The notes beneath the pieces were generated by a model. It was given only the letters and a program-made list of their open reading frames with translations. It did not search any database and was not told the DNA's origin. Below are positions 1 through 13,917 of a stretch of 64,000 nt of DNA, one piece after another. Location: sequence record MN176217; one strand, 5' to 3'. A program made the translations under genes and the position numbers. Numbering within the stretch: the stretch's first letter is position 1; each line of letters begins with the position of its first letter. Source of the DNA: Escherichia phage vB_Eco4M-7.

Positions 1-34
1 GACGCTGATCAGACTTTAATTCAATGGGTAAGGT

Positions 35-460
35 TTGATAACACTGGCGGCGGCAAATATCGCTACTATGGCGACGAGCGATTCACCACTAAATTCTATA
101 AGGTACTCGACCATGGCTCATGTTAAAGACGAAGTGTTGTATGGCGCAGAAATTAAGAAGCGCGTGCGTGAGATGGCTTCCGGTGGCACGCTGCTGCCGC
201 CGCGCGTTCGATGCGACCATGTGATTGGCGTATCCGGCACGAAGGAGATGGGCGTGTTGGTAAAAGACATTCGCATTGGCGATGTCATGGTCATCGACCG
301 ACAAGCGCGCGTCGTTATCCAGGTACAGCCGAACGATGATGAAGGTTGTGTCCTATTGAAGCTGAAGAAGCTTTCATCAAGCCCAGCGAAGGCCGTCATC
401 AAGAAGGTTTGGCCCGAAGGATTACGCAAACTCATCCGTCGACCCGTGGAGAATGTTTAA
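35..460 (+). CDS. hypothetical early protein
   Basis: ORF track, 141 aa; first gene of a long plus-strand run of small coupled ORFs; no recognisable motif. Confidence 0.45.
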   Translation: MITLAAANIATMATSDSPLNSIRYSTMAHVKDEVLYGAEIKKRVREMASGGTLLPPRVRCDHVIGVSGTKEMGVLVKDIRIGDVMVIDRQARVVIQVQPNDDEGCVLLKLKKLSSSPAKAVIKKVWPEGLRKLIRRPVENV

Positions 461-696
461 TGGAAGATTATATTAACGCCATGTATATGGCATTCTATGT
501 CGTGCAACTTCCCAATGGCGCGGTATTCTATGGCGAGTATACCTTTGACGTTCAATATGACGTTTCAGAGCGTACAGTGTTAACAAGGGAGTTGATTGCG
601 GACCTTAAGGACGACATAAAACGCGTCGCGCGGCAGCAGTTCAATTTGGATGACACAGTCATCGTTCGAATTACCGGAATAACAGAGGTGCAGTGA
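460..696 (+). CDS. hypothetical early protein
   Basis: Internal ATG at 460 (MEDYINAMY...) overlaps upstream stop (TAATGG); ORF track frame 346..696. Confidence 0.45.
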   Translation: MEDYINAMYMAFYVVQLPNGAVFYGEYTFDVQYDVSERTVLTRELIADLKDDIKRVARQQFNLDDTVIVRITGITEVQ

Positions 697-1025
697 TGAC
701 CCGTGATCAGATACTCGCCGCGCACAGACGCGGATCAGTAAAAGACATCTGGAAAAGACACAACTCATTTGCCGAAGCCTATTACTTCTTAAAGAAGTGC
801 ATAAAAGAGAATGTGAGGATGGGCGATACCGTTTTGACATTCAACCTTTTGTCTTATGGCAATAAGCTTAATGCAATATATGCTTGTCGCCTTGCAAGCA
901 TGAGGTTTGATGCAGGCAGCGACGGAGAGTTAACCATCTATCGATTCTCTCACCGGACGGGTGATACAAAGATAACAAGGACAAGGCACGAGATAGAGAT
1001 TGACCTACTCCACTATGTAAAATGA
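693..1025 (+). CDS. hypothetical early protein
   Basis: ORF track 110 aa; start overlaps upstream stop (ATGA). Confidence 0.5.
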   Translation: MMTRDQILAAHRRGSVKDIWKRHNSFAEAYYFLKKCIKENVRMGDTVLTFNLLSYGNKLNAIYACRLASMRFDAGSDGELTIYRFSHRTGDTKITRTRHEIEIDLLHYVK

Positions 1026-1030
1026 ATATC

Positions 1031-1063
1031 AAAAAGGTGAGCTAAATGCTTGCCTTTTCTTTT
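1031..1063 (+). terminator. rho-independent terminator-like hairpin (copy 1 of repeated cassette)
   Basis: AAGGTGAGC / GCTTGCCTT stem with G-U wobbles (1034-1056) followed by T-rich run; same 25-mer repeated at 2285. Confidence 0.5.
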
Positions 1064-1078
1064 ATCAATACTTATACT
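1050..1078 (+). promoter_or_regulatory. sigma70-like promoter TTGCCT-N17-TATACT
   Basis: -35 TTGCCT 1050-1055 (inside 3' arm of the hairpin), -10 TATACT 1073-1078, upstream of ORF 1111. Confidence 0.45.
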
Positions 1079-1110
1079 CTTTTCATCAAGACGAACAAGT
1101 GAGGTGAATT

Positions 1111-1428
1111 ATGATTTACTTAGGCATCGACAAGGAACAAGACGAGCGGTTAGGAAGCGTGTTAAACGTAGACTTGAACACAGCTGTACACATTAAGCCT
1201 TGGCCAGAGGCGCACCCCGACGTAGTTGTACCCGTTGCGCCTTGGACGCGTTACGTGGCCATTGACGATGACGGTCTTGTTCATTGTTATTCAGAAAAAC
1301 CGACATACTTCGAAAAGTATCGCCAATGGCTCATGACTGGATGGGCAAAGGTGCGCTGTTGCGGCGAAGTCGGTCTGGAAGGCTGGAGCTTCGAGGCTAG
1401 TGAATCGTTTGTCGAGGTGCAATTATGA
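1111..1428 (+). CDS. hypothetical early protein
   Basis: ORF track 105 aa; RBS GTGAGGTG upstream. Confidence 0.55.
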   Translation: MIYLGIDKEQDERLGSVLNVDLNTAVHIKPWPEAHPDVVVPVAPWTRYVAIDDDGLVHCYSEKPTYFEKYRQWLMTGWAKVRCCGEVGLEGWSFEASESFVEVQL

Positions 1429-1643
1429 ATGCCGCGCTGGGTAAGTTGTCATTCAACAAGCGTAACGAGCTGCGCATGGTGTCGCGCTTCCAGTTTGTAT
1501 TGAACTCGATGTCGAATCTTGCCATCACGATGCTTCGCGCTGATTGCCCTGCTGAAAAGCGTGAGACTTTATTTGAACGTCACAACCAATTACGAAAGGC
1601 TGCTTATAAGCTGCAGCAATATGCTATGGAGTATGCAAAATGA
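1425..1643 (+). CDS. hypothetical early protein
   Basis: ORF track 72 aa; ATGA overlap with upstream gene. Confidence 0.5.
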   Translation: MNAALGKLSFNKRNELRMVSRFQFVLNSMSNLAITMLRADCPAEKRETLFERHNQLRKAAYKLQQYAMEYAK

Positions 1644-2023
1644 GAATGAAGCGTTGCCCTTACTGCCACGATGTAATGCACCTTCCACACAAAGAGTTTG
1701 TGCAGCACATGACTAACTGTGATAAGAATCCTAAGAGCGAAAGCCAACTTGAAGAAAGAATGTTCTTGGTGTCATTCAAAGCTTCTGCTTATGAAGTGCA
1801 ACGTTCTTACGGCGCACCAAGTACGATTTACTGCCCAACAACATTGAGAAGTGACATTGACTCAATTCAGCTTGCGGCCTGGATTAACGTTAAGGAAGGA
1901 ATCACGCCGCACTTTATTGCACGCATCCAATCTCAGATTCTACAAATCAAGCGCGAATACAACCGTGACATCACTGAAGTGAAGGTGTTGTCTATCACAC
2001 CGATGAATAAGGAGTTGCCGTGA
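1640..2023 (+). CDS. hypothetical protein with N-terminal CxxC...H...C zinc-ribbon-like motif
   Basis: ORF track 127 aa; MRMKRCPYCHDVMHLPHKEFVQHMTNCD. Confidence 0.5.
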   Translation: MRMKRCPYCHDVMHLPHKEFVQHMTNCDKNPKSESQLEERMFLVSFKASAYEVQRSYGAPSTIYCPTTLRSDIDSIQLAAWINVKEGITPHFIARIQSQILQIKREYNRDITEVKVLSITPMNKELP

Positions 2024-2280
2024 ACAAGGGTCCGATGACTAAGTTAGCCGTTGCCGCGCGGAAGCTTCGACAAGCCGTTAATGGGTCGCGGCCCGTGGTG
2101 TTAACACTCGACGACGCAAAGGCACTGGTAGAGCTACTCGACGAGCACAACCGACGCAAGAATCTGGAGAACACATTACGCTGGCGCGTTACTCCGAAAG
2201 GGCGGGAGAGCGAAAAGAAAGCTTACTTGCGGCGTAAACTAAGGTCGGTCGGCCTTCACGAAGAGGCGAAGAATATTTAA
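2020..2280 (+). CDS. hypothetical basic protein
   Basis: GTG start 6 nt after AGGAG; overlaps upstream stop; 86 aa. Confidence 0.45.
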   Translation: MNKGPMTKLAVAARKLRQAVNGSRPVVLTLDDAKALVELLDEHNRRKNLENTLRWRVTPKGRESEKKAYLRRKLRSVGLHEEAKNI

Positions 2281-2286
2281 TTCAAA

Positions 2287-2316
2287 AAGGTGAGCTAAAT
2301 GCTTGCCTTTTTATTT
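2287..2316 (+). terminator. rho-independent terminator-like hairpin (copy 2)
   Basis: Exact repeat of the 1031-1058 hairpin, followed by T run. Confidence 0.5.
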
Positions 2317-2330
2317 GCCTGTATTATACT
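2303..2330 (+). promoter_or_regulatory. sigma70-like promoter TTGCCT-N16-TATACT
   Basis: -35 TTGCCT 2303-2308, -10 TATACT 2325-2330; RBS AAGGAG at 2344. Confidence 0.45.
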
Positions 2331-2352
2331 TAGTTCATCAAGCAAAGGAGAA

Positions 2353-2661
2353 ATGAGTATGAGTTACGACGAAAGGTTTGGCAGAAGCGGATTATTTCAT
2401 GACGCTGTACACAAAGACAGCAAAGATGTTGTCTGCGCATTCAAGGTTGATTCTTACGGTACACTGAAACCTTTTAAGGTCGGCGAAACATACAAGCTGT
2501 TTCACGGCTGGTTGACGCGTCGCAACAACTTGCCTGACATGGAAGTCTGGTGGATAGAATACAAGGGTCAGGCTCATCGTTGCAAGGTTGTAGAGGTGCG
2601 CGGCGTGGAATACTATCAATCTGTTATCAGCGGCTTTGTTTTTAAAGAGGGTGAGCTATGA
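2353..2661 (+). CDS. hypothetical protein (FKVG-x-TY paralog family)
   Basis: ORF track frame 2299..2661 trimmed to ATG after AAGGAG; shares FKVGETYKLF motif with ORF 3646..3987. Confidence 0.5.
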   Translation: MSMSYDERFGRSGLFHDAVHKDSKDVVCAFKVDSYGTLKPFKVGETYKLFHGWLTRRNNLPDMEVWWIEYKGQAHRCKVVEVRGVEYYQSVISGFVFKEGEL

Positions 2662-2978
2662 GTACCGAAGCGATGAAGAAAAAGATTTTGAACGCTTTGC
2701 AAGAAGCCGTGAACTGTGGTGCAATTAAAGAGTTCAAGGAGACGCAAGAAGGCGGTGAGCCAGTATTCTTCTTTAAGAATAAAAAGGACGGTGTTGCAGC
2801 AATCATGCTATTAAAGAATAGCGATGACACATTTGTTCTTTGCGTCGGCGGGTATGACCTTGTTGCAGACGATATATTCATAACCTGTGCTGGCAGCCTT
2901 GACACTGTTCTGACTTTTTCGCGTCGCGACATCCGTGTTGCAACGTTCGGAGGGAAATATTATGACATCCAACCTTAA
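2658..2978 (+). CDS. hypothetical protein
   Basis: ORF track 106 aa; ATGA overlap. Confidence 0.5.
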   Translation: MSTEAMKKKILNALQEAVNCGAIKEFKETQEGGEPVFFFKNKKDGVAAIMLLKNSDDTFVLCVGGYDLVADDIFITCAGSLDTVLTFSRRDIRVATFGGKYYDIQP

Positions 2979-3126
2979 AGCCCGTTTGTTATTCATCAAG
3001 CTGCATGTGCCATATAAGATTAGTAAGCGCACCTGGCTTAACATTTACAACCGCGGCGGCGACCGTTGTTTGTACAAGGCAAAGCGGCGCAAGAAGGTAT
3101 ATTCTTACACAACATCAATCAAATAA
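2962..3126 (+). CDS. small basic hypothetical protein
   Basis: ATG at 2962 after GGAGGG; in frame with ORF track 2935..3126. Confidence 0.3.
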   Translation: MTSNLKARLLFIKLHVPYKISKRTWLNIYNRGGDRCLYKAKRRKKVYSYTTSIK

Positions 3127-3142
3127 ATAGGATAAGACAACA

Positions 3143-3646
3143 ATGAAAATCGAACAACTCGAAGCAGTATTGGAAATGGCTGTGAAGGCAGGCGCAATCA
3201 GAAGCTATAGCCGCGAGAAGTCGGATGACGCTGCGCACTTTTGTCGCAACTTCTATATTGTCGGCAACCTTAACGACCACTACACCATCGAGTGGTATAC
3301 TAATATGATGACGCTTAAGTCGCGCACCATGGAGCTTTGGTGCGATGACATCTGCTTATCCAACACCCATCCATCCTACGACGTTGCGTTGGCATTCTAT
3401 TACGGAAGCCGTCAACCTGTCGCCCACATCGGTGAGAAGCATGAGCATCTTAAGGCGCGACCAGAGGAATCAATGGAAGGTTGGATTGAATGGGCTGGCG
3501 GCAAGAATCCGGTGCCTGGTAAGAAGGTCATGTTGATGTGGAGGAATGAAGAGAAGTCTTCTTATTCATCCAATTCAGAAGGATGGCTATGGCAGCACAA
3601 CGGAAGCGTTTATGACATCATTGCTTATCGCGTCGTGGAGGAATAA
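3143..3646 (+). CDS. hypothetical protein (shares C-terminal NPVPG...AYRVV domain with 4790..5221)
   Basis: ORF track 167 aa; C-terminus GGKNPVPGKKVMLMWRN...YDIIAYRVVEE. Confidence 0.55.
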   Translation: MKIEQLEAVLEMAVKAGAIRSYSREKSDDAAHFCRNFYIVGNLNDHYTIEWYTNMMTLKSRTMELWCDDICLSNTHPSYDVALAFYYGSRQPVAHIGEKHEHLKARPEESMEGWIEWAGGKNPVPGKKVMLMWRNEEKSSYSSNSEGWLWQHNGSVYDIIAYRVVEE

Positions 3647-3987
3647 TGGAAGAGCAAGAAGGCCGTGAGCTCACGTTCGACGAGCAGATGCAAGAGCTTC
3701 AGCGCACATCGCCGCTGCGCGGTAAGGTTGTTGACATCGAGGCGAGCGAATCCAATCTCACCCAGTGGCGACTCAAGTGCACCAGCACAAGCAAGGATAT
3801 GTTAAGCTTCAAAGTCGGTCAAACCTATTTGCTTTATGAGGCAAAAGGACTTATTATTGATGGAAGGCAAATTGTCTTCACAGTAGTCAGCGGAATGCGT
3901 TGGTTCGTGAAGCGTGATGTCGAGGGCCGTGACATGTTTGTCGCAGGCTTTCCAGAAGCAAGATTCCAATTGGAGAAGGTTAAATGA
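3646..3987 (+). CDS. hypothetical protein (FKVG-x-TY paralog family)
   Basis: ORF track 113 aa; SFKVGQTYLLYEAKG. Confidence 0.5.
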   Translation: MEEQEGRELTFDEQMQELQRTSPLRGKVVDIEASESNLTQWRLKCTSTSKDMLSFKVGQTYLLYEAKGLIIDGRQIVFTVVSGMRWFVKRDVEGRDMFVAGFPEARFQLEKVK

Positions 3988-4805: not shown

Positions 4806-5221
4806 CGCAACGTTATGATGTTGATTATTGCACGCAGCACGCTTGCACCTGCGAAGTTGTAAAGGATGATGAAGGCGGCTACGTTGAATATGAGGACTAC
4901 GCCGCGCTGGAAGCGAAATACAGTGAAGCGCAACGCGAGTTGGTTGCATTACGCTCACAGGTCCGTGATGCGTCGGTGCTCGTTAAGCAGTTGCATGACG
5001 TTGTTGCTACTATAGGCGTGGATGATGCGCCGAAGGAGGAAGCGTGGACCGTTTGGGAATCCAACGCAACCAATCCCGTCCCAGGACGTATGGTGATGTA
5101 TATGTTGCGCGACGGCTATGAATCTAAATCACCTGTGCTTTCCGATGGGTTGCGTTGGGAGATGATGGGACTGCCACACGGAACGGACATCGTCGCTTAT
5201 CGGGTTGTTAAGGAGGGGTGA
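4790..5221 (+). CDS. hypothetical protein (paralogous C-terminal domain to 3143..3646)
   Basis: ORF track 143 aa; alternative ATG at 4802; C-terminus NPVPGRMVMYMLRD...DIVAYRVVKEG. Confidence 0.55.
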   Translation: MELKMTQRYDVDYCTQHACTCEVVKDDEGGYVEYEDYAALEAKYSEAQRELVALRSQVRDASVLVKQLHDVVATIGVDDAPKEEAWTVWESNATNPVPGRMVMYMLRDGYESKSPVLSDGLRWEMMGLPHGTDIVAYRVVKEG

Positions 5222-5754
5222 TGGGTAACGATGCAGGATGGGGCAAGCCGCGATACTCAAAACTTGCCCACTACTTTGACGACGGCGAGCAAATCAGCTT
5301 GTGCGGTAAATTCAGCAAAGGCAATACAGAGTTGACCGACGCTCAAGAAATGGAATCAAGTTTAACAATTGGTGATTGTTCTAAATGTCGCAAGGCATTA
5401 TATGAGTTATTAACTCTAAGGGGATTGGAAGCGGCAAAATCAAGGGATGAATGGGTCATTAACGTCTGTGAAGGGAATCCAGAATTAATGGATGAATGGC
5501 TAAAGACGGATGCTGTTAATGCCATTTTCAAAAGGCATTATAAAACTTGTATGCGTTACAAGATGAATGATGATATTATTTTTATGGTATTATCTTATTC
5601 AAGGAGCACAATGGACGTCAAAAAGCTTCGACAATATCGCCACAAGGTAATGTGTGAATTACGCCGTTTAGGAGTGATTGTGGATAATAATGTTATTAAA
5701 ACGGAGTTAAAGAAGCGTGATAAAAGGAATGGTGACTGGAAGGTCAGCGGATAA
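5218..5754 (+). CDS. hypothetical Cys-containing protein; last gene of early operon
   Basis: ORF track 178 aa; 3' third is AT-rich with an internal AAGGAG-ATG at 5612. Confidence 0.4.
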   Translation: MMGNDAGWGKPRYSKLAHYFDDGEQISLCGKFSKGNTELTDAQEMESSLTIGDCSKCRKALYELLTLRGLEAAKSRDEWVINVCEGNPELMDEWLKTDAVNAIFKRHYKTCMRYKMNDDIIFMVLSYSRSTMDVKKLRQYRHKVMCELRRLGVIVDNNVIKTELKKRDKRNGDWKVSG

Positions 5755-6180
5755 AGAACATTGATTCGTGTGTTTTGAAGAATGGAATGTGTACAATTGG
5801 TCGCTTTACGCGGCCTTTTTGTCGTTTGGGTCGTGTTTTGTGATAGAATAATTATGACGAGGTGTTTTATTTATTAATTGTGCGGAAATATTTAGAAATA
5901 TATACAAACAGGATTGTTAATATTTTAATAGTGTATGGCTATTGGTCCGTGGTGTTTGTTAGATTCTATCTATGGATTGGATTTTCTTGGGTCGTGGAAC
6001 GTGGTTTTGAACACATTTGATACGCCTAAAATACGGTTAAAAATTAAGCGTATCATGGCTGCAGGCCGCGCCGTTCCTGGATTCCTATTTTCAAAAGTGG
6101 TACACCCTTACGTCATGATACGTCATGGTTTTCTATCCGTAAGAGTGTACAGCCCTTGCCGCGCCTGGCTTGTACATTAA

Positions 6181-6326
6181 TCTTACGGATGATACGGATA
6201 AAACTGAGCATCGTTATATATAGAATTCGAAAAATTAATTAACTCCATTTTAAAAACATTTATATTAATTTTTTTCATATCCTCATACTTATGTTAATTT
6301 ATATATTTAACGTATCATCCGTAAGA
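6181..6326. repeat. inverted-repeat element A: TCTTACGGATGATACG arms flanking ~110 bp AT-rich core
   Basis: 6181-6199 TCTTACGGATGATACGGAT; 6311-6326 is its reverse complement; extra ATACG boxes at 6018, 6112, 6355-6378. Confidence 0.8.
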
Positions 6327-6606
6327 TATAAGTAAAAACAAAGACTTGCGGCAATACGGATGATACGTCATGATACGCTTCAACCAGCCAGCAGCGGCTA
6401 AGTCATTGATTTGCATAACAAGCGGCGAAAGGGATGGATTTCTTTTATACGTATCAAACAGTACACCACGCACCACGGTCCGCAATCCTATTTGCACTAT
6501 GATTTGTGTACGTTTATAGCCATAATGAACATCAATCTGCACTTGAATATAATGTCCATCCATTGTATAATTCACACTATTAATTTGCACTATGGGATTT
6601 TGCACT

Positions 6607-7080
6607 ATGAGTCAAGATTATGTAGCGATGCCTGAAGACTTTGAAGACCCGCGATTCGCAGAGCACAATCAGGCTTTATTCGATGAGTTCATTGACCTTG
6701 TTATTCAGGGCCATGACATGCGCGCAGCTTTTGCACTAGTATTTGGAATGGAAGTTGCAACGGATAACTACACTGGCCAGCGAATCCTTTGCACGCAACG
6801 CAATCCATACTACAAGATGCGCTTCAAAAAGCGTATGGAAGAGATGCCACTCAAGGATTTGTGGAGCGTAAAAGGTGCAATTCACAATTTGGTCAAGCTT
6901 GTGCGTGATCCAGAAGTCGCAGCGTCAGCCAAGCTTAATGCTATTCGTGAACTGAATATCATCTACGACATCACGATGATTGATGAAAACGGCAACAGCA
7001 AGATGGGCCGTTCCATGGACGATTTCTACAAGGATTTTGGAGAGGCGGCCAAAGAAGGCGAGCAATTCTCCCGCCACTAG
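6607..7080 (+). CDS. putative HTH DNA-binding protein, possibly terminase small subunit-like
   Basis: ATG at 6607 overlaps the third TTTGCACTAT motif; N-terminal FDEFIDLVIQGHDMRAAFALVFG resembles small-terminase HTH (recalled pattern, not searched). Confidence 0.35.
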   Translation: MSQDYVAMPEDFEDPRFAEHNQALFDEFIDLVIQGHDMRAAFALVFGMEVATDNYTGQRILCTQRNPYYKMRFKKRMEEMPLKDLWSVKGAIHNLVKLVRDPEVAASAKLNAIRELNIIYDITMIDENGNSKMGRSMDDFYKDFGEAAKEGEQFSRH

Positions 7081-7099
7081 CCAATTTGCACTATAAAAC

Positions 7100-7133
7100 G
7101 GCCCTAGAACACATTGTCTCCAATTCTAGGGCC
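7100..7133. other. 10-bp perfect stem-loop GGCCCTAGAA/TTCTAGGGCC
   Basis: Inverted repeat just after the stop of 6607..7080; no obvious U-tract. Confidence 0.5.
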
Positions 7134-7508
7134 ATCGGTAATACGACGGGGAAGGTTGCAACCGTAAACGCGTTAGAAAGTGTATTATTATAAGTCATCT
7201 TTTAGTCACCTTACGTAACAATTTACGACCTTCAACCGTCCAATCGAACGACTCCACCAGCAGATTCGCACTATAACCTAAGACCACTCGACCCTTCTCG
7301 TTATCGACCCGCCAGCAAGTCTCGAATAGCATTCGATTTGCACTATTAACTATTGCTGCGACTCGCGTAGGATAAGCGCAATTTGCACTATGGTCGTAAA
7401 GGGATAAGGTGCGACCACTTCCGATGGACAACGTAGCGATGAGAATGAGCGTATTCATAAGCCACCAATTTGCACTATGAAAAGCGACCCCGAAGGGCCG
7501 CCATTCGA

Positions 7509-8135
7509 TTAGATAATCTGGAAGGTGTAGGACTTGTTGCCGAACTCGAAGTTCAAGCGTCCAGCTTCTTTAAGCTTCATGCGGAAGCGAATATGCTTGC
7601 TATCCGGCAAGCCCAGCGCGGCGAACGCTACGCGGACCGATTTGAACTCGCCTACACCCTCGACCATAACGCCGTTACGGGTGAGACGCTTTTGCGCCAC
7701 TTCTTTATTATCCCAACTTTTTGCAATACCTTTGCTATTCGAACGGCGATGGGAAGGAATTGCAATTTTATTCGCTCCAACCGGAGCATCATTAAGGCCG
7801 CTTTTAACGAAGGCTTCATATTCTTCGTCGGTCATCGCGTCGAGTTCTTCCTGGGTCGGCTCGGCCTTTTTAACGACCGCGCGCGCCTTATGCGTTTTTA
7901 CATCACTGGACACTTCCTCGCGAGACTTTGCGTCTGGGATGGGCGATTCGTTGGACGGATCATCGAGCGCGTTTAAGGATTCGATTAACGCGATTACGCG
8001 AGTCTCAGCGGTGCGACGGTCCGCGAATTTTTTAATCGGCTTTGAGCCTGAATTTTCGTTATAGAATGCAACGAGGTCGGCGGTCTTGGTTGCGATTACG
8101 TCGCCGCTGGTGGAGAAACGATTCAAACTGGCCAT
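7509..8135 (-). CDS. hypothetical protein
   Basis: ORF track 208 aa; strong RBS AGGAG 8 nt upstream of ATG; protein-like composition unlike the overlapping plus-strand ORF. Confidence 0.6.
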   Translation of the reverse strand: MASLNRFSTSGDVIATKTADLVAFYNENSGSKPIKKFADRRTAETRVIALIESLNALDDPSNESPIPDAKSREEVSSDVKTHKARAVVKKAEPTQEELDAMTDEEYEAFVKSGLNDAPVGANKIAIPSHRRSNSKGIAKSWDNKEVAQKRLTRNGVMVEGVGEFKSVRVAFAALGLPDSKHIRFRMKLKEAGRLNFEFGNKSYTFQII

Positions 8136-8180
8136 AATAAACTCCTAGTTTGGGAGCGGTGTCAACGACCTATTCGTTAA

Positions 8181-8243
8181 CTCATCCGTCCCGATATGAG
8201 TACATTATAATATAGTGTAGAAAAAAAGTAAAGCACTTTTTCG
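8181..8243 (-). promoter_or_regulatory. promoter-like element (minus-strand copy)
   Basis: Reverse complement reads CGAAAAAGTGCTTTAC...TACACT...TATAAT, near-identical to the 8664 element. Confidence 0.5.
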
Positions 8244-8275
8244 ATAAAAATGAGATAAATTATTTTATCTTTTTT

Positions 8276-8318
8276 CTTTACTTCTTCGTACACTCGCGTA
8301 TACTTGTTTATATCGAGA
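8276..8318 (+). promoter_or_regulatory. promoter-like element (copy 2)
   Basis: CTTTACTTCTTCGTACACT (exact 19-mer shared with 8674) + TATACT 8299-8304 + GTTTATATCGAGA. Confidence 0.5.
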
Positions 8319-8360
8319 CGGGCGATGGCCCTTCCTTCTAATAGCATCGGGAGTTTTATT

Positions 8361-8663
8361 ATGACCACTTTAATCTCTTCTATCCTTACTTACGACGAAG
8401 ACCGTTTAACCGTTCGCTCTCTTATCGCCGCCGTTAACGCGGAACTAGAATCCACCATTATTAAGGTCCGCGCGGTCGCTTTCGTCGGCCTTTCCTTCGA
8501 CGATATTAAGTACGCCGAACGTAGCGTCATCCGCTTCGCGAAGACCGATGACGAAGCCGTTACCCTTATCGAGACGGTTACGCCGCGCGGCGAAGCGTTA
8601 ATTATCGTCGAGTATATCGACGTAGAAGGCGATAAGGCTTATAAATATTTTATCGCAAAATAA
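8361..8663 (+). CDS. hypothetical protein
   Basis: ORF track frame 8304..8663, start moved to ATG 8361 after GGGAG; CpG-rich codon choice. Confidence 0.5.
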   Translation: MTTLISSILTYDEDRLTVRSLIAAVNAELESTIIKVRAVAFVGLSFDDIKYAERSVIRFAKTDDEAVTLIETVTPRGEALIIVEYIDVEGDKAYKYFIAK

Positions 8664-8717
8664 CGAAAAAGTGCTTTACTTCTTCGTACACTAAGACTAT
8701 AATGTTTTATATCGAGA
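8664..8717 (+). promoter_or_regulatory. promoter-like element (copy 3)
   Basis: CGAAAAAGTGCTTTACTTCTTCGTACACT, TATAAT 8698-8703, GTTTTATATCGAGA. Confidence 0.5.
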
Positions 8718-8770
8718 GGGGATGAGGTAGCGAATAGGTCGCTACCCTCCCGACTAACTAGGAGAATATT

Positions 8771-9061
8771 ATGATTACTTTAGCCGCTATCCGCGACGCT
8801 CGCGTCGAGACTTCCGAAAATTCCAACGTATTTGGCGAAAAGCTTAAAAACGTCTATCTTTTTAACGTAGACGCAACTATCGAGCCTATTTATGAGCCGA
8901 TCAACTTCCTCGACCTTTACAAGTATCGCGACGAGGACATCGTATCATCCCGCGTAACGATCAACGGCTTCGTCTATACGATTACCGAAATCGGCGGCGA
9001 ATATCTCGCGGTCCCGCAACTCGGCGGCGAAGTAACTTTCTTTAAAATCGTAAGCCTGTAA
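8771..9061 (+). CDS. hypothetical protein
   Basis: ORF track 96 aa; RBS AGGAGAA upstream. Confidence 0.55.
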   Translation: MITLAAIRDARVETSENSNVFGEKLKNVYLFNVDATIEPIYEPINFLDLYKYRDEDIVSSRVTINGFVYTITEIGGEYLAVPQLGGEVTFFKIVSL

Positions 9062-9072
9062 GGAGAAGGAAG

Positions 9073-9282
9073 ATGACTAATATGAATAATTCTCTTAACG
9101 CGCGCGCCCATCGCACCGCCGTAATCGATATGTTCCGCGAGCTTAAGGAATTATGCGATAATATGAACGCGATGTTATCCATCGGCGGCTGGGGATACGA
9201 AGAAGAGGTTAAATACGCGGTTATGCGTCGCCGTCGCGATAACGTCCTTGGACAAATTAAACGCGCCGGATTATTCCTTTAA
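9073..9282 (+). CDS. hypothetical protein
   Basis: ORF track 69 aa; RBS GGAGAAGGAAG upstream. Confidence 0.5.
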   Translation: MTNMNNSLNARAHRTAVIDMFRELKELCDNMNAMLSIGGWGYEEEVKYAVMRRRRDNVLGQIKRAGLFL

Positions 9283-9307
9283 TTATAATTACCCACCGTT
9301 ACTAATA

Positions 9308-9333
9308 GGCCGCGCTTAGTCGCGGCTTTTCTT
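9308..9333 (+). terminator. rho-independent terminator
   Basis: GCCGCG-CTTAGT-CGCGGC hairpin followed by TTTTCTT. Confidence 0.6.
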
Positions 9334-9453
9334 CGTCCCTATCTCGATGCGCTTCTCCGCGAAAACTCCTTTATCCTTCCCTTCGTCGTCGCATAATCTT
9401 CGTCGAGATGCGCCTTAGTTCGCATAACAGGTATTACGTTAAATGGAGAACAT

Positions 9454-9526
9454 CGCGTAAGTCGTTGTTTTATATAGACACATATATCGGACCGTTAGGG
9501 CGGGTCGCGTAAGTCGTTGTTTTATA
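9454..9526 (+). repeat. direct repeat of 21-mer CGCGTAAGTCGTTGTTTTATA (two copies)
   Basis: Copies at 9454-9474 and 9506-9526. Confidence 0.8.
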
Positions 9527-9987
9527 AAGGCGCAAAACTTTCCCTTCGTTCCGAACTAAAACGAGAAATATGCCGACCCTTCGCCCGAAAATAGTACGCA
9601 TGCGAAATTACATGCATCTCGAATAATCCCCACCGATACTATCCTACACGCAATCATTCGCTTTCGAATCATTATGCTTCATATTATCATGCGTCGAATC
9701 ATTCGCTTTCGAATTGTAACGCTGGAAACTGTAACGGCGATTGATTATTGCGTTCGTGTGGTTTTTATGGCATGGGTCTTTTGGTGCGTTTTGCTACTTG
9801 ATGGAATTTGCGGTACACTAATCAAAATACGACACATTTGGTCCACTAACTTTTCAAAGAAAAAGTCCTAGACAGTACCGTACTATTTTGTACCCACAGG
9901 AAATTTGCAGTACACTCCTGCGCAGCAGGCAAAATAAAGGGCCGCACTAAGCGACCCACGATTCACGGTTAAAGCAACATCCACCCA

Positions 9988-10389
9988 CTATTCAATCTTA
10001 TGGGCATCACCAAAACCATCAGCAATCTGGCTGATCAACGACTCAATGGACACAGTTTTACCAATTGATCGAGCGGTAATAGCAAGCATATTATCAATCA
10101 AGCCACGATTGACTTCACATGTTCCAGGCTTTAACTCATCTTCAGAACAACCAAAAAGCTGGTCGCGCAGACTTTCAAGAGAACGCTCAATATTTTCCAA
10201 CTTCTCTTCTAAATCGGATTGGCGACGTAAAACCCATGTCAAGTCACGGTTGCCGACTTCCAATCCATCAGAATAGCAAGGTGGAGCGTCAATTTTGATG
10301 CTGGAACTAAAAGCAGTGCCGCTGCCTTTAGTATAAGTATGGCTCATAGAATCATTTTGGCTCATAGAATCATTTTTATTTGACATATC
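9988..10389 (-). CDS. hypothetical protein with tandem N-terminal SMSQNDSMS repeat
   Basis: ORF track frame 9988..10452, start trimmed to ATG with AAGG RBS; tandem 17-nt repeat at 10340-10380. Confidence 0.5.
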   Translation of the reverse strand, partial: DMSNKNDSMSQNDSMSHTYTKGSGTAFSSSIKIDAPPCYSDGLEVGNRDLTWVLRRQSDLEEKLENIERSLESLRDQLFGCSEDELKPGTCEVNRGLIDNMLAITARSIGKTVSIESLISQIADGFGDAHKIE

Positions 10390-10483
10390 ATTACCTTTAA
10401 TATTTGGGTGATTAACAATAACTATAATAAAGCCGCATAGCGCGCCATTCAAATCGATTTATTAATTGTGACGATTGGATTCA

Positions 10484-10711
10484 TCAATCGATACAAATTG
10501 TGCAGGGTCGCCGGATACAGTTGCGCCGATGATACCCATCTGAGAGAAAAAATTCTGAATAAACTTCCTTCCAGTACTTACGCGCTGCTTTCTGGGCTTG
10601 ACCTTTGCGCTTGAAGCTTTTACCTTGAAATATGAAGCGGTCTTTTGGTGCGTAATACTCCACCACACCTTCCAGCCATTGTAAGAACGCTACTGATTCA
10701 TTTTTATTCAT
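10484..10711 (-). CDS. hypothetical protein; possible +1 frameshift or homopolymer error at T6 run
   Basis: Two overlapping ORFs (10484..10711 and 10462..10668) join at a T6 run near 10545-10552. Confidence 0.35.
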   Translation of the reverse strand: MNKNESVAFLQWLEGVVEYYAPKDRFIFQGKSFKRKGQAQKAARKYWKEVYSEFFLSDGYHRRNCIRRPCTICID

Positions 10712-10718
10712 ATTAACC

Positions 10719-11114
10719 TCAATATTTTAATAAGAAAGCACCCAACCAACTTTCCTCAACCTCACGGCCAGTAGCCACACGGTCGGTCTTGGCTATGGGT
10801 CTGTATTCGCCACAGGGCAATCCGTCTTGTAGTTGTGTACTATTGCCAATTCTCACCAGAACCTTTCCATCAGGGTCGATATAAGCGCGACAACCCATGA
10901 TTTCGAGTCGTTGTAGACACTGGCGAATCGTTTTCAGCTTCTCACCGGACCGGATAGAGCGCGGTCGCGACCGCTGACCGTTTTTATTCACTGTACGCTT
11001 GGCGACCGGAATATCATTGGTGCGTTGCGGCTTGGGTCGGTAATAAGCCTCTTCGCCAGGAGTCGCACCTGGCGTCAGTTCGCGCTTGAGCGCCTTTTCA
11101 ATATCAATGATCAT
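10719..11114 (-). CDS. hypothetical basic protein
   Basis: ORF track 131 aa. Confidence 0.5.
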   Translation of the reverse strand: MIIDIEKALKRELTPGATPGEEAYYRPKPQRTNDIPVAKRTVNKNGQRSRPRSIRSGEKLKTIRQCLQRLEIMGCRAYIDPDGKVLVRIGNSTQLQDGLPCGEYRPIAKTDRVATGREVEESWLGAFLLKY

Positions 11115-11117
11115 GAT

Positions 11118-11216
11118 TTATGCCGCAGCAGCGTGGATGATTGCGTAAACGATTCCAAACAGGGCGACAACACAAACCGTGCCCCAAAATGCAAAGCGTC
11201 GTGCCTCTTTATCCAT
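11118..11216 (-). CDS. small hydrophobic protein (32 aa, single predicted TM helix)
   Basis: Hand-translated MDKEARRFAFWGTVCVVALFGIVYAIIHAAAA; RBS GGAGAAGGG 6 nt upstream; below ORF-track size cutoff. Confidence 0.4.
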   Translation of the reverse strand: MDKEARRFAFWGTVCVVALFGIVYAIIHAAAA

Positions 11217-11496
11217 TAGACCCTTCTCCGCTGTTAATGTTGTCTAGAATCAAGGTTGGAATTTCATCTTGAGTTCTGACTTTGTAATGCGAAGGCATTT
11301 TGCTTTCTAACAATGCCTGTTCGGCTTCTCCCTTTGTCTCAAAGAGCGGGATGCACCAATCAACTGCATCGCCATGTTCATCGCCTGTAACGGCTTTCAA
11401 AAAGACAAGGCGTTTGTCTGCAGGGTCGATTCCGCAAATTAAGTATTTTGGAAGAGCCTTTGCTTTCTGAGCCTTATCAATATCTTCAAATTTCAT
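11209..11496 (-). CDS. hypothetical protein
   Basis: ORF track frame 11209..11508, start at ATG 11496 (MKFEDID) with GAGGTG RBS. Confidence 0.5.
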   Translation of the reverse strand: MKFEDIDKAQKAKALPKYLICGIDPADKRLVFLKAVTGDEHGDAVDWCIPLFETKGEAEQALLESKMPSHYKVRTQDEIPTLILDNINSGEGSNG

Positions 11497-11577
11497 AAAA
11501 CACCTCACTTGTTAACGTATAATGAGTATAACTTAATTGCGCATAAAGTAAAGGCGCTTTTCAGCGCCTTGAGTGAA

Positions 11578-13917
11578 TTATTTTGCTGCTTTCAGCGCGG
11601 CTATCTCTGCCTCGAGAACCTCGATGCGGTCCATCAATGCAAGAATAGCCTCGTGGTGCAGTGCTGCTGCTACGCCTGGTGTGTTGACAGATTTTATGTT
11701 ATCCAACGTCGAACCGTCGCGCAGAGTAACAGGCGATGACTGTGTTTCAGATACTGCTTCAGGAAAGTCTTTCTCTACATCCTGGGCGATGAAGCCAAAA
11801 CCGACGGAGCCATTAGTTTCCAGAGTCCATGCCACGCCTCTAATATTGCGCATCTTGACGAGTGGATCAGTGATCCGCTCAATGTTACTTTTAATACGTT
11901 CATCAGATATACTCCGCCACTCCTGACACCTTGCTATTCCATCGGAGCCAAAAAGATAAGAGGCCGCGCCGCCTGTCCCGCTGTAAACGTTCAATTGAGC
12001 GCGGTCCAGCGCGGTCGTGCTACTCCTTATGCCTCCGAGAATCCAGCTTCCGCTGTACCAGTCACCGCTGATTGAGTTTACAAAATTTCCTTCTGGAACG
12101 TTGGCATAGTTTTGAATCCTTATGGCGTTGTTTTCTGCAGCAGCAACGCCTACTGAATTAACTGGGGATGCAACAAGGTCTTTAGACCGGATATATGCAT
12201 CAACAAATATTGTTCCATCAGGGCGCAGAGTTCCAATCTGGGATGTGGAATTTGGCAACACCAATTTGCCATCTTGGTTAAATGCCCACTCTTGCACCCC
12301 ATTAGATATCACCGCACCTTGTTCAGATGTTAATCCATCAATCTTGCCGTATGCCTGCAAGAATGCTTGATACGCGATGTTCGTGCCAATCTTATATTCA
12401 GATTTTACACTACCGCCTCTGACAAGCGTTCCGGTTGCAGGTTTTACTGCGTCACCATTAATGACGCTCCAAGTCGTATTCGCGGCAACAAATCCACCAG
12501 ATGCACGAATCACCCAAACACCTTCAAAGGCATTAGGTCGAATTTCATTCGCATCATCACGTCCATAAGCGCCATTTGACAGCGATGCATCAAAGTTCAC
12601 GTCTACATAATAACCATCAGAAGTCCCGCGCATACTTCCAGCAGTTTTTACTATTTTTGGCTCAAATGCGCCATATCCTCGCGTCACGCCAGAGGTGCCG
12701 AATGCAGTAAGCATAGACACATTAGGTGAACCAGAAATATTTGGTGCAGCACTCTGCCTGACACGACCGTCGTTTGAAGATACACCTCCATCACCACGCC
12801 CGAATAAACCTGGGATTGAGCCTGCTTGAACGCCGTTGCGGTCTGGAACTCGAAATGTAGTTGTGCCGTTGCCTAATGAATACTTGCCGCGTTTCGCTGG
12901 GTCCGCTAACCAATCTGCATCAGCAATAGGCGAAAGCATTTGCGCATATGCCCAAAGTTCAGGCCAATCTGCACGATTGAGTAATTGGCCGTCAGAAACG
13001 ACTTCGTAAGGCTGGATGTAAGCACGACTGTCTCGCAAGTGGAAGTCGCCGACGCCATAGTTCATAACACCGTTCATGCTTGGGCCAACGGTGCCTGTGT
13101 TCACTAAGTTCTCAACCCAACGCTTGGTTGCAGCATCATAATCGTTTACCGGATCACCAGCAAGCGGAGTCGGCCCTTGTGGACGAATATTCAACCAAGC
13201 TTGAGCATTGTCTGCTGATCCTGTGCCGCCCATTGAAGTTGGAACGATGCTTTGATCAGCGACTTGTCCGAATCCAAAAGCAGACTTCATCCCCTGTATG
13301 GTAGTTTGACCTGTGCCGCCATTTGCGACTGGTATAACGCTTTGCGTGTTATAAACTTGAACCCAATCAGACCAGGATGATATATCGACGCTATACAACC
13401 TTTGGTATACTGTGTTTATCCAGTAAGGCGTGTATCTCTGCACACAGCTGTTCGTTGAAACTCCCGTTTGTAAAACTTCAAGTATTCCAGCTTGTTCTAC
13501 AGGATAGTTGAGTGCTGTTGACGCCCCAGCATTAGTCGGTTGGTAATATTGACCGAACCAGCTTCCGTTCAGCGCGTTAAGGTTTATGCCATTAGGAATT
13601 ACGCCAAAGTTTCGGACAGTACCCGTCAAAGTCGCGGCAGTAGTTCGAATGGAAAGCATATCACCAGCCGCCCAAGCACGCGCTGCAGTACCTTCCTGTG
13701 CACGCTGCACGGTCAGGACGTTTCCAACAACGGCTGTTACTGTGACGATTTCGAATTGGAGGCCTGTTGCGGCGTCAACGATTGTCGCCACTACACGCTC
13801 GTTTGCGCCCAAGGTCGGAAAGCCCGACCCTGAGCGAATTGTGATTGTGGTGTCTGAAGTCGTCGTTGGCTGAGCGAGCGCGACCTCAAAGTTGTTTTTG
13901 AATATTAGCCTTGGCAT
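11578..13917 (-). CDS. tail fibre/spike protein with C-terminal intramolecular chaperone (peptidase S74-like) domain
   Basis: 779 aa; Gly/Thr/Asn-rich fibre-like body; C-terminal SDERIKSNIERI...ALMDRIEVLEAEIAALKAAK resembles the autoproteolytic chaperone domain of phage fibres. Confidence 0.7.
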   Translation of the reverse strand: MPRLIFKNNFEVALAQPTTTSDTTITIRSGSGFPTLGANERVVATIVDAATGLQFEIVTVTAVVGNVLTVQRAQEGTAARAWAAGDMLSIRTTAATLTGTVRNFGVIPNGINLNALNGSWFGQYYQPTNAGASTALNYPVEQAGILEVLQTGVSTNSCVQRYTPYWINTVYQRLYSVDISSWSDWVQVYNTQSVIPVANGGTGQTTIQGMKSAFGFGQVADQSIVPTSMGGTGSADNAQAWLNIRPQGPTPLAGDPVNDYDAATKRWVENLVNTGTVGPSMNGVMNYGVGDFHLRDSRAYIQPYEVVSDGQLLNRADWPELWAYAQMLSPIADADWLADPAKRGKYSLGNGTTTFRVPDRNGVQAGSIPGLFGRGDGGVSSNDGRVRQSAAPNISGSPNVSMLTAFGTSGVTRGYGAFEPKIVKTAGSMRGTSDGYYVDVNFDASLSNGAYGRDDANEIRPNAFEGVWVIRASGGFVAANTTWSVINGDAVKPATGTLVRGGSVKSEYKIGTNIAYQAFLQAYGKIDGLTSEQGAVISNGVQEWAFNQDGKLVLPNSTSQIGTLRPDGTIFVDAYIRSKDLVASPVNSVGVAAAENNAIRIQNYANVPEGNFVNSISGDWYSGSWILGGIRSSTTALDRAQLNVYSGTGGAASYLFGSDGIARCQEWRSISDERIKSNIERITDPLVKMRNIRGVAWTLETNGSVGFGFIAQDVEKDFPEAVSETQSSPVTLRDGSTLDNIKSVNTPGVAAALHHEAILALMDRIEVLEAEIAALKAAK

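Follow-up and report, generated by a model that had tools for sequence, protein, structure and literature searches.

A conserved non-coding module at the inner boundary of the direct terminal repeat of Escherichia phage vB_Eco4M-7 as a candidate signal for genome-end formation

The 64,000-nt window of Escherichia phage vB_Eco4M-7 (sequence record MN176217) contains a repeat-rich non-coding stretch (9334-9987) that straddles the inner, right-hand end of the 3.5-kb direct terminal repeat (DTR), with 448 bp inside the DTR and 206 bp outside it. By homology with related phages, this stretch is predicted to hold a physical genome end, with the boundary at 9781/9782, a context missed by an earlier sequence-only reading, which had proposed a possible non-coding RNA (ncRNA), replication origin, or regulator landing pad. 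We consider it moderately probable that the stretch is a cis-acting module for formation of the right genome end by terminase cleavage, because of its position, its insulation by terminators, and a conservation peak centered on the cut. The proposal of a landing pad stands in a loose sense, in that the stretch appears to be conserved cis-acting DNA with repeats resembling protein-binding sites, but it did not include the DTR boundary.

The stretch and its flanks are 100% identical in Escherichia phage vB_Eco4M-7n and 89-97% identical in 27 other records, all of which represent Wifcevirus myoviruses of E. coli or Shigella; in a sensitive blastn search of the stretch against 50,697 phage records, matches were confined to Wifcevirus. 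Conservation within the genus was assessed in an alignment of 18 genomes, and presence at the record level was counted over 28 related records. The more distant relatives are three Logan contigs (L041, L042, and L043) found by a protein search with the terminase small subunit (TerS), whose TerS proteins are 68, 50, and 46% identical to that of this phage, respectively. The true intergenic interval (9283-9987) is somewhat longer than the stretch as originally delimited. Eight open reading frames (ORFs) of at least 30 aa occur in the stretch, none of them intact in all 18 genomes, and an excess of variable sites at third codon positions was not found in these genomes, in agreement with the previous statement that no credible ORF is present.

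Inner Boundary of the Direct Terminal Repeat

The DTR of vB_Eco4M-7 was placed by homology at 6248-9781 (3,534 bp). Its left end reads AACTCC/ATTTTAAAAAC, where the slash marks the repeat boundary, and the repeats of phages WFH, SP13, and Ro157lw begin at AACTCC/ATTTT. The right end, GGCATGGGTCTTT/TGGTGCG, falls between 9781 and 9782, inside the stretch. Identical repeat copies are present at both ends of the records of WFH (3,701 bp), SP13 (3,899 bp), and Ro157lw (3,533 bp), and a comparison of record starts with record ends places the stop of all three repeats at GGCATGGGTCTTT/T, corresponding to window position 9781. For phage Mansfield, a DTR of 3,673 bp was determined with PhageTerm (PMC6753283), and the last base of this DTR (1-3673) is homologous to the right end in WFH, SP13, and Ro157lw. 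A terminal repeat of ~3.7 kb has also been described for WFC and WFH (PMC6563267). In close relatives, the packaged DNA stops at the counterpart of window position 9781, with the same sequence at both of its ends and a defined last base within the element. The terminal repeat of Wifcevirus phages is already published; the boundary module and its conserved blocks are not described in the papers searched.

Comparison of the two DTR boundaries (±200 bp), in direct or inverted orientation, revealed no significant common sequence (longest word 9 nt, 212/300 shuffles). A pair of boundary inverted repeats of the Kayvirus type was rejected, as the similarity between the boundaries is at chance level. 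In this phage, the unique part of the stretch likewise resembles the left interior of the DTR no more than expected by chance. A 10-nt inverted repeat centered on the right cut (9741-9750 / 9816-9825) was dropped, since by our own estimate ~0.6 such repeats are expected by chance. In contig L041, a 21-nt element CAGTACACCACGCACAACGGT is located at 13003-13023, ~33 nt outside the presumed right repeat boundary; it is identical at 20/21 positions to window 6459-6479, in the left part of the repeat upstream of TerS, with 0/500 shuffles reaching its score. No copy of this element was found at the right boundary of vB_Eco4M-7. GTAC is rarer than expected in the window (142 vs 247 sites), and its densest cluster lies just outside the right boundary (9813-9913, five sites per 100 bp, including the palindrome AGTACCGTACT); a cluster of three sites (6100-6175) is located just outside the left boundary.

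Conservation of the Boundary Region

The stretch is kept in 28/28 records and contains long invariant runs. In its conservation, the module is on a par with the gene for the small terminase. Invariant columns make up 0.82 of 9297-9966 and 0.89 of 9697-9899; the corresponding values are 0.88 for TerS, and 0.61 and 0.53 for the two flanking genes. Per-site nucleotide diversity amounts to 0.026-0.035 at 9300-9599 and 9700-9899, vs 0.064-0.14 in the coding DNA to the right, and the variable patches of the stretch are limited to 9600-9699 and 9900-9999. The flanks are mosaic, with genes on both sides swapped or diverged. On the left, gene 9073-9282 has no close nucleotide match in 20/28 records, where the match starts only at window position 9283, and window 9100-9199 is covered by only approximately six of the 18 aligned genomes; this gene looks like a mosaic insertion directly upstream of the conserved non-coding DNA. 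Its 69-aa product matches a PHROG "transcriptional regulator" family. On the right, phage ECO71P1 carries a different gene.

The three distant contigs are alike in layout, with TerS, a few small genes, and a 508-656-bp gene-free gap between convergent genes. Across 5.3 kb, L041 is 50% identical to this phage overall; identity is 0.62-0.74 in the TerS coding region, and no alignment is obtained for the genes on either side of the gap (0.3-0.5). Within the gap, identity is 0.62-0.76 over 9400-9599 and reaches 0.88 at 9700-9749, 0.84 at 9750-9799, and 0.84 at 9850-9899. The first of these is the highest-scoring window over the 5.3 kb, and the value of 0.84 is equaled by just one coding window (7850-7899). 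The best-conserved 100 bp of the whole comparison (9700-9799) encompass the boundary core AAACTGTAACGGCGATTGATTATTGCGTTCGTGTGGTTTTTATGGCATGGGTCTTT/TGGTGCGTTTTGCTACTT (9726-9799), which contains the right end of the DTR at 9781/9782; the cut falls in the middle of the core. Around the homologous cut position, GTTAGTGTGG...TTTTGGTACTT is kept in both L042 and L043.

These data bear on one alternative, a passive spacer between convergent terminators, in which the repeats would be neutral slippage duplications and the conservation would reflect recent ancestry only. Such a spacer would fit the 89-97% identity of all Wifcevirus genomes in this region, the polymorphism of a 45-bp duplicated unit (one copy in Bas100), the absence of a second 15-mer motif and a second terminator from L041, and the lack of conservation of a GCATGC hairpin, the last three of which are described below. 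Nonetheless, we regard it as quite improbable, given an identity island of 0.84-0.88 in L041, where alignment of the flanking genes is lost, an invariant fraction above that of both neighboring genes, and the recurrence of the same motif family in four lineages down to 46% TerS identity.

Repeats and Sequence Motifs

The stretch contains several pairs of repeats, none of which belongs to a family with more than two exact copies. The previously noticed 18-mer AATCATTCGCTTTCGAAT is present exactly at 9652 and 9697, and at least two matches with up to 3 mismatches were obtained in only 2/100 shuffles. It holds a 5+4+5 palindrome (ATTCG-CTTT-CGAAT) and is part of two 43-nt units, 45 bp apart (9636-9723), that carry the 18-mers (9652-9669 and 9697-9714) together with TCGAATCATT motifs (9664 and 9694). 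The duplication is polymorphic, as Bas100 has a single 45-bp unit, while the distal copy of the 43-nt unit is kept in all four lineages. The 18-mer belongs to the TCGAATCATT motif family, which is repeated in every lineage with changing copy number. Motifs of the TCGAATCATT type are clustered upstream of the core, with 4/4 locus matches falling in the gap of L042 and 8/10 in the gap of L043; in L041, both copies have the variant AACCATT.

The 21-mer CGCGTAAGTCGTTGTTTTATA likewise occurs exactly as reported, at 9454 and 9506 (matches with up to 3 mismatches in 0/100 shuffles), and extends to a 30-nt direct repeat with 90% identity. Copy 1 occupies 9453-9482 (21-mer core 9454-9474), and copy 2, at a spacing of 52 bp, occupies 9505-9534 (21-mer core 9506-9526). 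Copy 1 was found in 18/18 genomes, with position 11 of the 21-mer being C rather than G in 11 of them. In this phage the 21-mer departs from the IHF consensus by a single mismatch; copy 1 of L041 reads TAAGTCGTTGATTTATAA, which is the exact IHF consensus WATCAANNNNTTR on the minus strand; copy 2 of L041 keeps only GTAAGT...TATAAAGG. The pair is still recognizable in L041, not recognizable in L042, and absent from L043. A 20-mer of this repeat (GCGYAAGTCSTTGTTTTATA) is also present exactly in long non-coding regions of two unrelated families of uncultivated viral contigs from IMG/VR (L032, 10622-10792; L033, 5330-5349). A second, inverted copy with 3 mismatches is located in L032, 130 bp away across an AT-rich spacer, and in one contig family the inverted pair lies 2.3 kb from a primase gene. 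No protein homology was detected between these contigs and the window, and no isolate matched the 20-mer. By our own estimate, approximately one database match to the 20-mer is expected by chance, and we leave its occurrences in IMG/VR unexplained.

The same repeats could suggest a replication origin, or a landing pad for host factors in replication, where the 21-mer pair and other repeats would bind an initiator or IHF. The direct arrangement of the repeats, the spacing of the 21-mers at approximately five helical turns, their similarity to the IHF consensus (exact in L041), and the 20-mer in non-coding regions of two unrelated viral contig families, once near a primase gene, are in line with this proposal. 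We nonetheless consider an origin improbable, and the earlier suggestion to this effect is not supported. An AT-rich unwinding element is lacking (GC content 0.38-0.51), the AT-rich tract (GC 0.19) being at the left boundary instead. No DnaA box (TTWTNCACA) is present at 9334-9987 even with one mismatch, compared with 1.7 per kb window-wide at this threshold, and no exact IHF site occurs in the stretch. There is no iteron array: an iteron-type origin has at least three direct iterons plus an AT-rich element, often accompanied by DnaA or IHF sites, and here each family is represented by two exact copies, with the 21-mer missing from L042 and L043. Moreover, no skew inflection is observed at this locus, the extremes of cumulative skew being located near 6 kb and 15 kb, and the approximately one chance match to the 20-mer weakens the argument from the database occurrences.

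Two AATTTGCRGTACACT 15-mers are present on the plus strand of the stretch, as described before: AATTTGCGGTACACT at 9805-9819, 24 bp outside the DTR, and AATTTGCAGTACACT at 9902-9916. Their proposed relation to the array at 6.5-7.5 kb did not survive a weight-matrix test built on the eight ATTTGCACTAT sites of that array, and we reject them as members of this TerS-proximal array. The array sites score 22-28 bits, whereas the 15-mers score 8.6 (rank 17) and -2.4 (rank 620); the two groups have only AATTTGC(A) in common. In L041, copy 1 survives in part (AATTGCCAGTACAC); L042 and L043 have preserved ACACT..TCAAAA. Copy 2 appears to be dispensable or lineage-specific, because it is absent from L041 and altered in WFC, Bas99, and ECO71P1.

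Two further conserved blocks were delineated. The block CCCTTCGCCCGAAAATAGTACGC (9577-9599) is nearly invariant in the 18 genomes, and L043 keeps CCCTTCGCCCGAAAATAGT exactly. The second block, TTTCAAAGAAAAAGTCCTAGACAGTACCGTACTATTTTGTACCCACAGG (9851-9899, minus strand), includes the palindrome AGTACCGTACT. In addition, one GCATGC palindrome is located at 9598; the earlier plural was an overstatement, the other site being ATGCAT (9612). The hairpin formed by GCATGC and ATGCAT is lost in 10/18 relatives.

Terminators, Promoters, and RNA

The stretch is bracketed by two Rho-independent terminators, which bears out its description as lying between convergent transcription units. The terminator of the rightward early genes (plus strand; called at 9307-9328, element 9307-9334) consists of AGGCCGCGCTTAGTCGCGGCTT followed by a T-run. 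Window 9296-9335 is invariant across the 18 genomes, and 9297-9330 is identical in L041 (34/34); in L043, the plus-strand terminator has a different stem sequence, and the hairpin is still formed. The terminator of the leftward genes (minus strand, 9957-9939) is formed by GGGTCGCTTAGTGCGGCCC and TTTATTTTG; its loop is variable among relatives, and the element is absent from L041. In that contig, the block homologous to 9851-9899 forms GCCCTGG...CCAGGGC followed by a T-run on the minus strand and serves as its leftward terminator. The block at 9851-9899 is probably the ancestral leftward terminator, which has been weakened in this phage. The convergent terminators shield the module from read-through transcription. 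A short repeat of variable number (CCCACGA / CACGATT) was observed at 9955-9975, where the leftward terminator is followed by the stop codon of the neighboring gene, with approximately seven copies in Mansfield (L001, ~3860-3905) and a duplication in F13, SP13, and Bas99.

A further alternative is that one or more small ncRNAs are transcribed from the gap, in line with the ncRNA suggested from the sequence alone. A sigma-70 promoter scan within the stretch detected nothing beyond weak minus-strand sites (9773-9744 and 9712-9683, 9 of 12 matches), and a weak minus-strand hairpin is located at 9617-9596; these elements are compatible with such RNAs, although the hairpin is the one lost in 10/18 relatives. 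A covariance-model scan of 5000-12000 on both strands with Rfam 15 returned no match at E<=1, and folding of 100-nt windows on both strands identified none that was unusual (minimum z-score -2.0 over 64 windows, mean -0.08). Distant conservation is confined to short motifs, and the copy number and spacing of the blocks differ from lineage to lineage, a pattern characteristic of DNA sites rather than of a structured RNA. We therefore find the ncRNA proposal unsupported and rate it as highly improbable, the least probable of the alternatives considered.

Within the DTR, two sigma-70 promoters predicted to be strong have their -35 region in an exact 19-nt repeat CTTTACTTCTTCGTACACT (8276 and 8674). 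The intergenic regions 8133-8305 and 8661-8773 are linked by several inverted repeats of 18-24 nt and probably hold the principal early promoters of the terminal repeat. The longest run without variation, among the genomes that cover it, is 8254-8305.

Packaging Context and Proposed Function

The gene at 6607-7080, which starts 360 bp from the left genome end, encodes the small terminase TerS (E=2e-34 to PDB 7UXE, the E217 TerS). Eight same-strand ATTTGCACTAT sites (6490-7478) are arranged around and within this gene, and the rest of the 64 kb is devoid of them. Relatives with TerS identities as low as 46% have a counterpart of the array, made up of TGCACTA repeats around TerS. The array is likely a terminase recognition (pac-like) array. 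The left cut (6247/6248) lies in a tract with 19% GC and is flanked by a perfect 16-bp inverted repeat TCTTACGGATGATACG (arms at 6181-6196 and 6311-6326), of which a third copy, in direct orientation, occurs at 6355; this layout is kept in distant relatives with their own ACGGAT/GATACG-type motifs. The DTR holds at least six genes, including TerS, with the small genes located behind sigma-70-like promoters. A Pfam search of the DTR proteins gave no matches, and in PHROG they matched either a transcription regulator or families without an assigned function. Two Chi sites (GCTGGTGG) are present in the DTR, at 7254 (minus strand) and 8106 (plus strand), each oriented for RecBCD entering from the nearer genome end. 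All relatives retrieved keep the site at 7254, which lies ~1 kb from the left end, and the site at 8106 was found only in this phage.

If the stretch acts in end formation, the following scheme can be proposed. Terminase would load near the left end, where the TerS gene sits within the eight-copy ATTTGCACTAT array, and would translocate rightward until, with the head nearly full, it reaches the second DTR copy. Within the last 330 bp of this copy it would meet the TCGAATCATT-type repeats and, in this lineage, the IHF-like 21-mer pair. These repeats, which are most likely protein-binding signals for the end cut, might bind terminase, an accessory protein, or a host bending protein, and the bound proteins would direct cleavage or nicking to the T-run of the core at 9781/9782. 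Following the T7 model, the repeat could be duplicated through a combination of offset nicks at its two boundaries and strand-displacement synthesis. Alternatively, with the opposite polarity, packaging could start at the right end, and the repeats would act like lambda cosB.

Several observations weigh against this scheme. We infer the function in end formation from position and conservation; likewise, the ends were mapped in relatives, and 9781/9782 in vB_Eco4M-7 is a transfer by homology. The deposited repeat of WFC (3,784 bp) ends 81 bp further right, at the homolog of window position 9862, which reflects either a real shift of the boundary or a less precise call. As the two boundaries have no significant common sequence, a single recognition rule for both cuts is not evident. 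Not all of the repeats can be essential, because the 21-mer pair is confined to some lineages and Bas100 has just one 45-bp unit. The whole DTR is rather conserved in the genus, so the within-genus signal may partly reflect recent common ancestry. Finally, E217 TerS displayed no appreciable DNA binding in vitro (PMC9611059).

The main competing function is an injection stop as in T5, in which the DTR would enter the cell first, its early genes would be expressed, and the inner repeat-rich block would halt transfer until phage proteins release it. The architecture corresponds to that of T5 Repeat Region 3 (bioRxiv 10.1101/866236), with 448 bp inside and 206 bp outside the DTR here; as in T5, an untranslated block is conserved above the adjacent ORFs. 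The small DTR genes of this phage are preceded by sigma-70-like promoters. However, the DnaA boxes are lacking, and no large inverted-repeat partner occurs elsewhere in the DTR (best pair 28 nt, 71% complementarity). No A1/A2/dmp-like protein was identified among the DTR proteins with Pfam and PHROG, two-step transfer has never been reported for this phage group, and the conservation maximum is centered exactly on the cut, as a cleavage site predicts. We regard an injection stop as unlikely, ranking ahead of an origin.

An extension of the end-formation reading, which we advance only tentatively and hold to be far from probable, is a two-part definition of the ends of long terminal repeats, with a distinct motif family at each boundary. 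The left part would comprise the ACGGATGATACG inverted repeats around the AT-rich cut, and the right part the TCGAATCATT repeats with the conserved core. With the same reservation, the right module might be a sequence-specific "stop and cut" signal recognized by terminase during translocation, or a DnaA-independent injection-stop signal in a myovirus.

Comparison with Known Systems

To our knowledge, the cis signals for packaging of phages with long DTRs are poorly defined, and the recognition of kilobase-sized DTR boundaries by terminase is poorly understood even in T5. A boundary module is an expected and fairly ordinary kind of feature for a DTR phage; here, comparison across four lineages maps the conserved blocks of a module of ~650 bp in a phage group used against E. 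coli O157. Correct ends matter for both annotation and engineering of these phages. A system for in vitro assembly and rebooting has been published (PMC11074155), so the essential blocks are directly testable. If the two-part definition of ends were true, the module would offer an experimental model that is compact and mutable, in vitro rebuilding of the phage being already possible.

The nearest characterized relatives are the Pbunaviruses (PB1/E217-like), which have a homologous TerS (~41% identity by tblastn). Their genomes are reported to be circularly permuted and terminally redundant, which means headful packaging without fixed ends (PMC12345254), and this marks the fixed DTR, along with the boundary module, as a trait belonging to the Wifcevirus lineage. 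Pbunavirus PS44 was considered as a DTR-bearing outgroup and rejected, since its gene order differs (TerL 1.3 kb past TerS); no second TerS-like gene was found in the last 6 kb of its record.

The closest analog of the stretch is T5 Repeat Region 3: both are non-coding, repeat-rich, and located mostly inside a long DTR, overrunning into unique DNA. The T5 block extends 270 bp into unique DNA, compared with 206 bp here, and is better conserved than the adjacent ORFs (bioRxiv 10.1101/866236). It differs in its size (1.2 kb) and in having paired DnaA boxes and a 131-bp inverted-repeat partner, the latter two being absent here; furthermore, in contrast to T5, the present phage is a myovirus with a 3.5-kb repeat.

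In T7 and T3, fixed, sequence-defined ends are found at both sides of the DTR, short repeat arrays flank the boundaries, and both boundaries are presumed to be cut at offset positions before the repeat is duplicated. The fixed ends at both sides of the DTR, the short repeats at its boundaries, and the presumed offset-cut mechanism are common to these phages and vB_Eco4M-7. The T7 repeat, however, is 160 bp long and non-coding, whereas the repeat described here has 3.5 kb and at least six genes; the sequences show no similarity, and nothing points to a T7-like coupling to a phage RNA polymerase. The cos region of lambda consists of cosQ, cosN, and cosB, with R sites for gpNu1 and an IHF site, and yields 12-nt cohesive ends from a single site. 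The resemblance lies in a cut flanked on one side, at ~70-330 bp, by short repeats and an IHF-like site, and in the small-terminase gene near the genome end. Unlike lambda, this phage would have two cuts 3.5 kb apart and a direct repeat instead of cohesive ends, and the IHF match is exact only in L041. The junction signals of T7 and T3 and the lambda cos region are best taken, by analogy, as functional models only.

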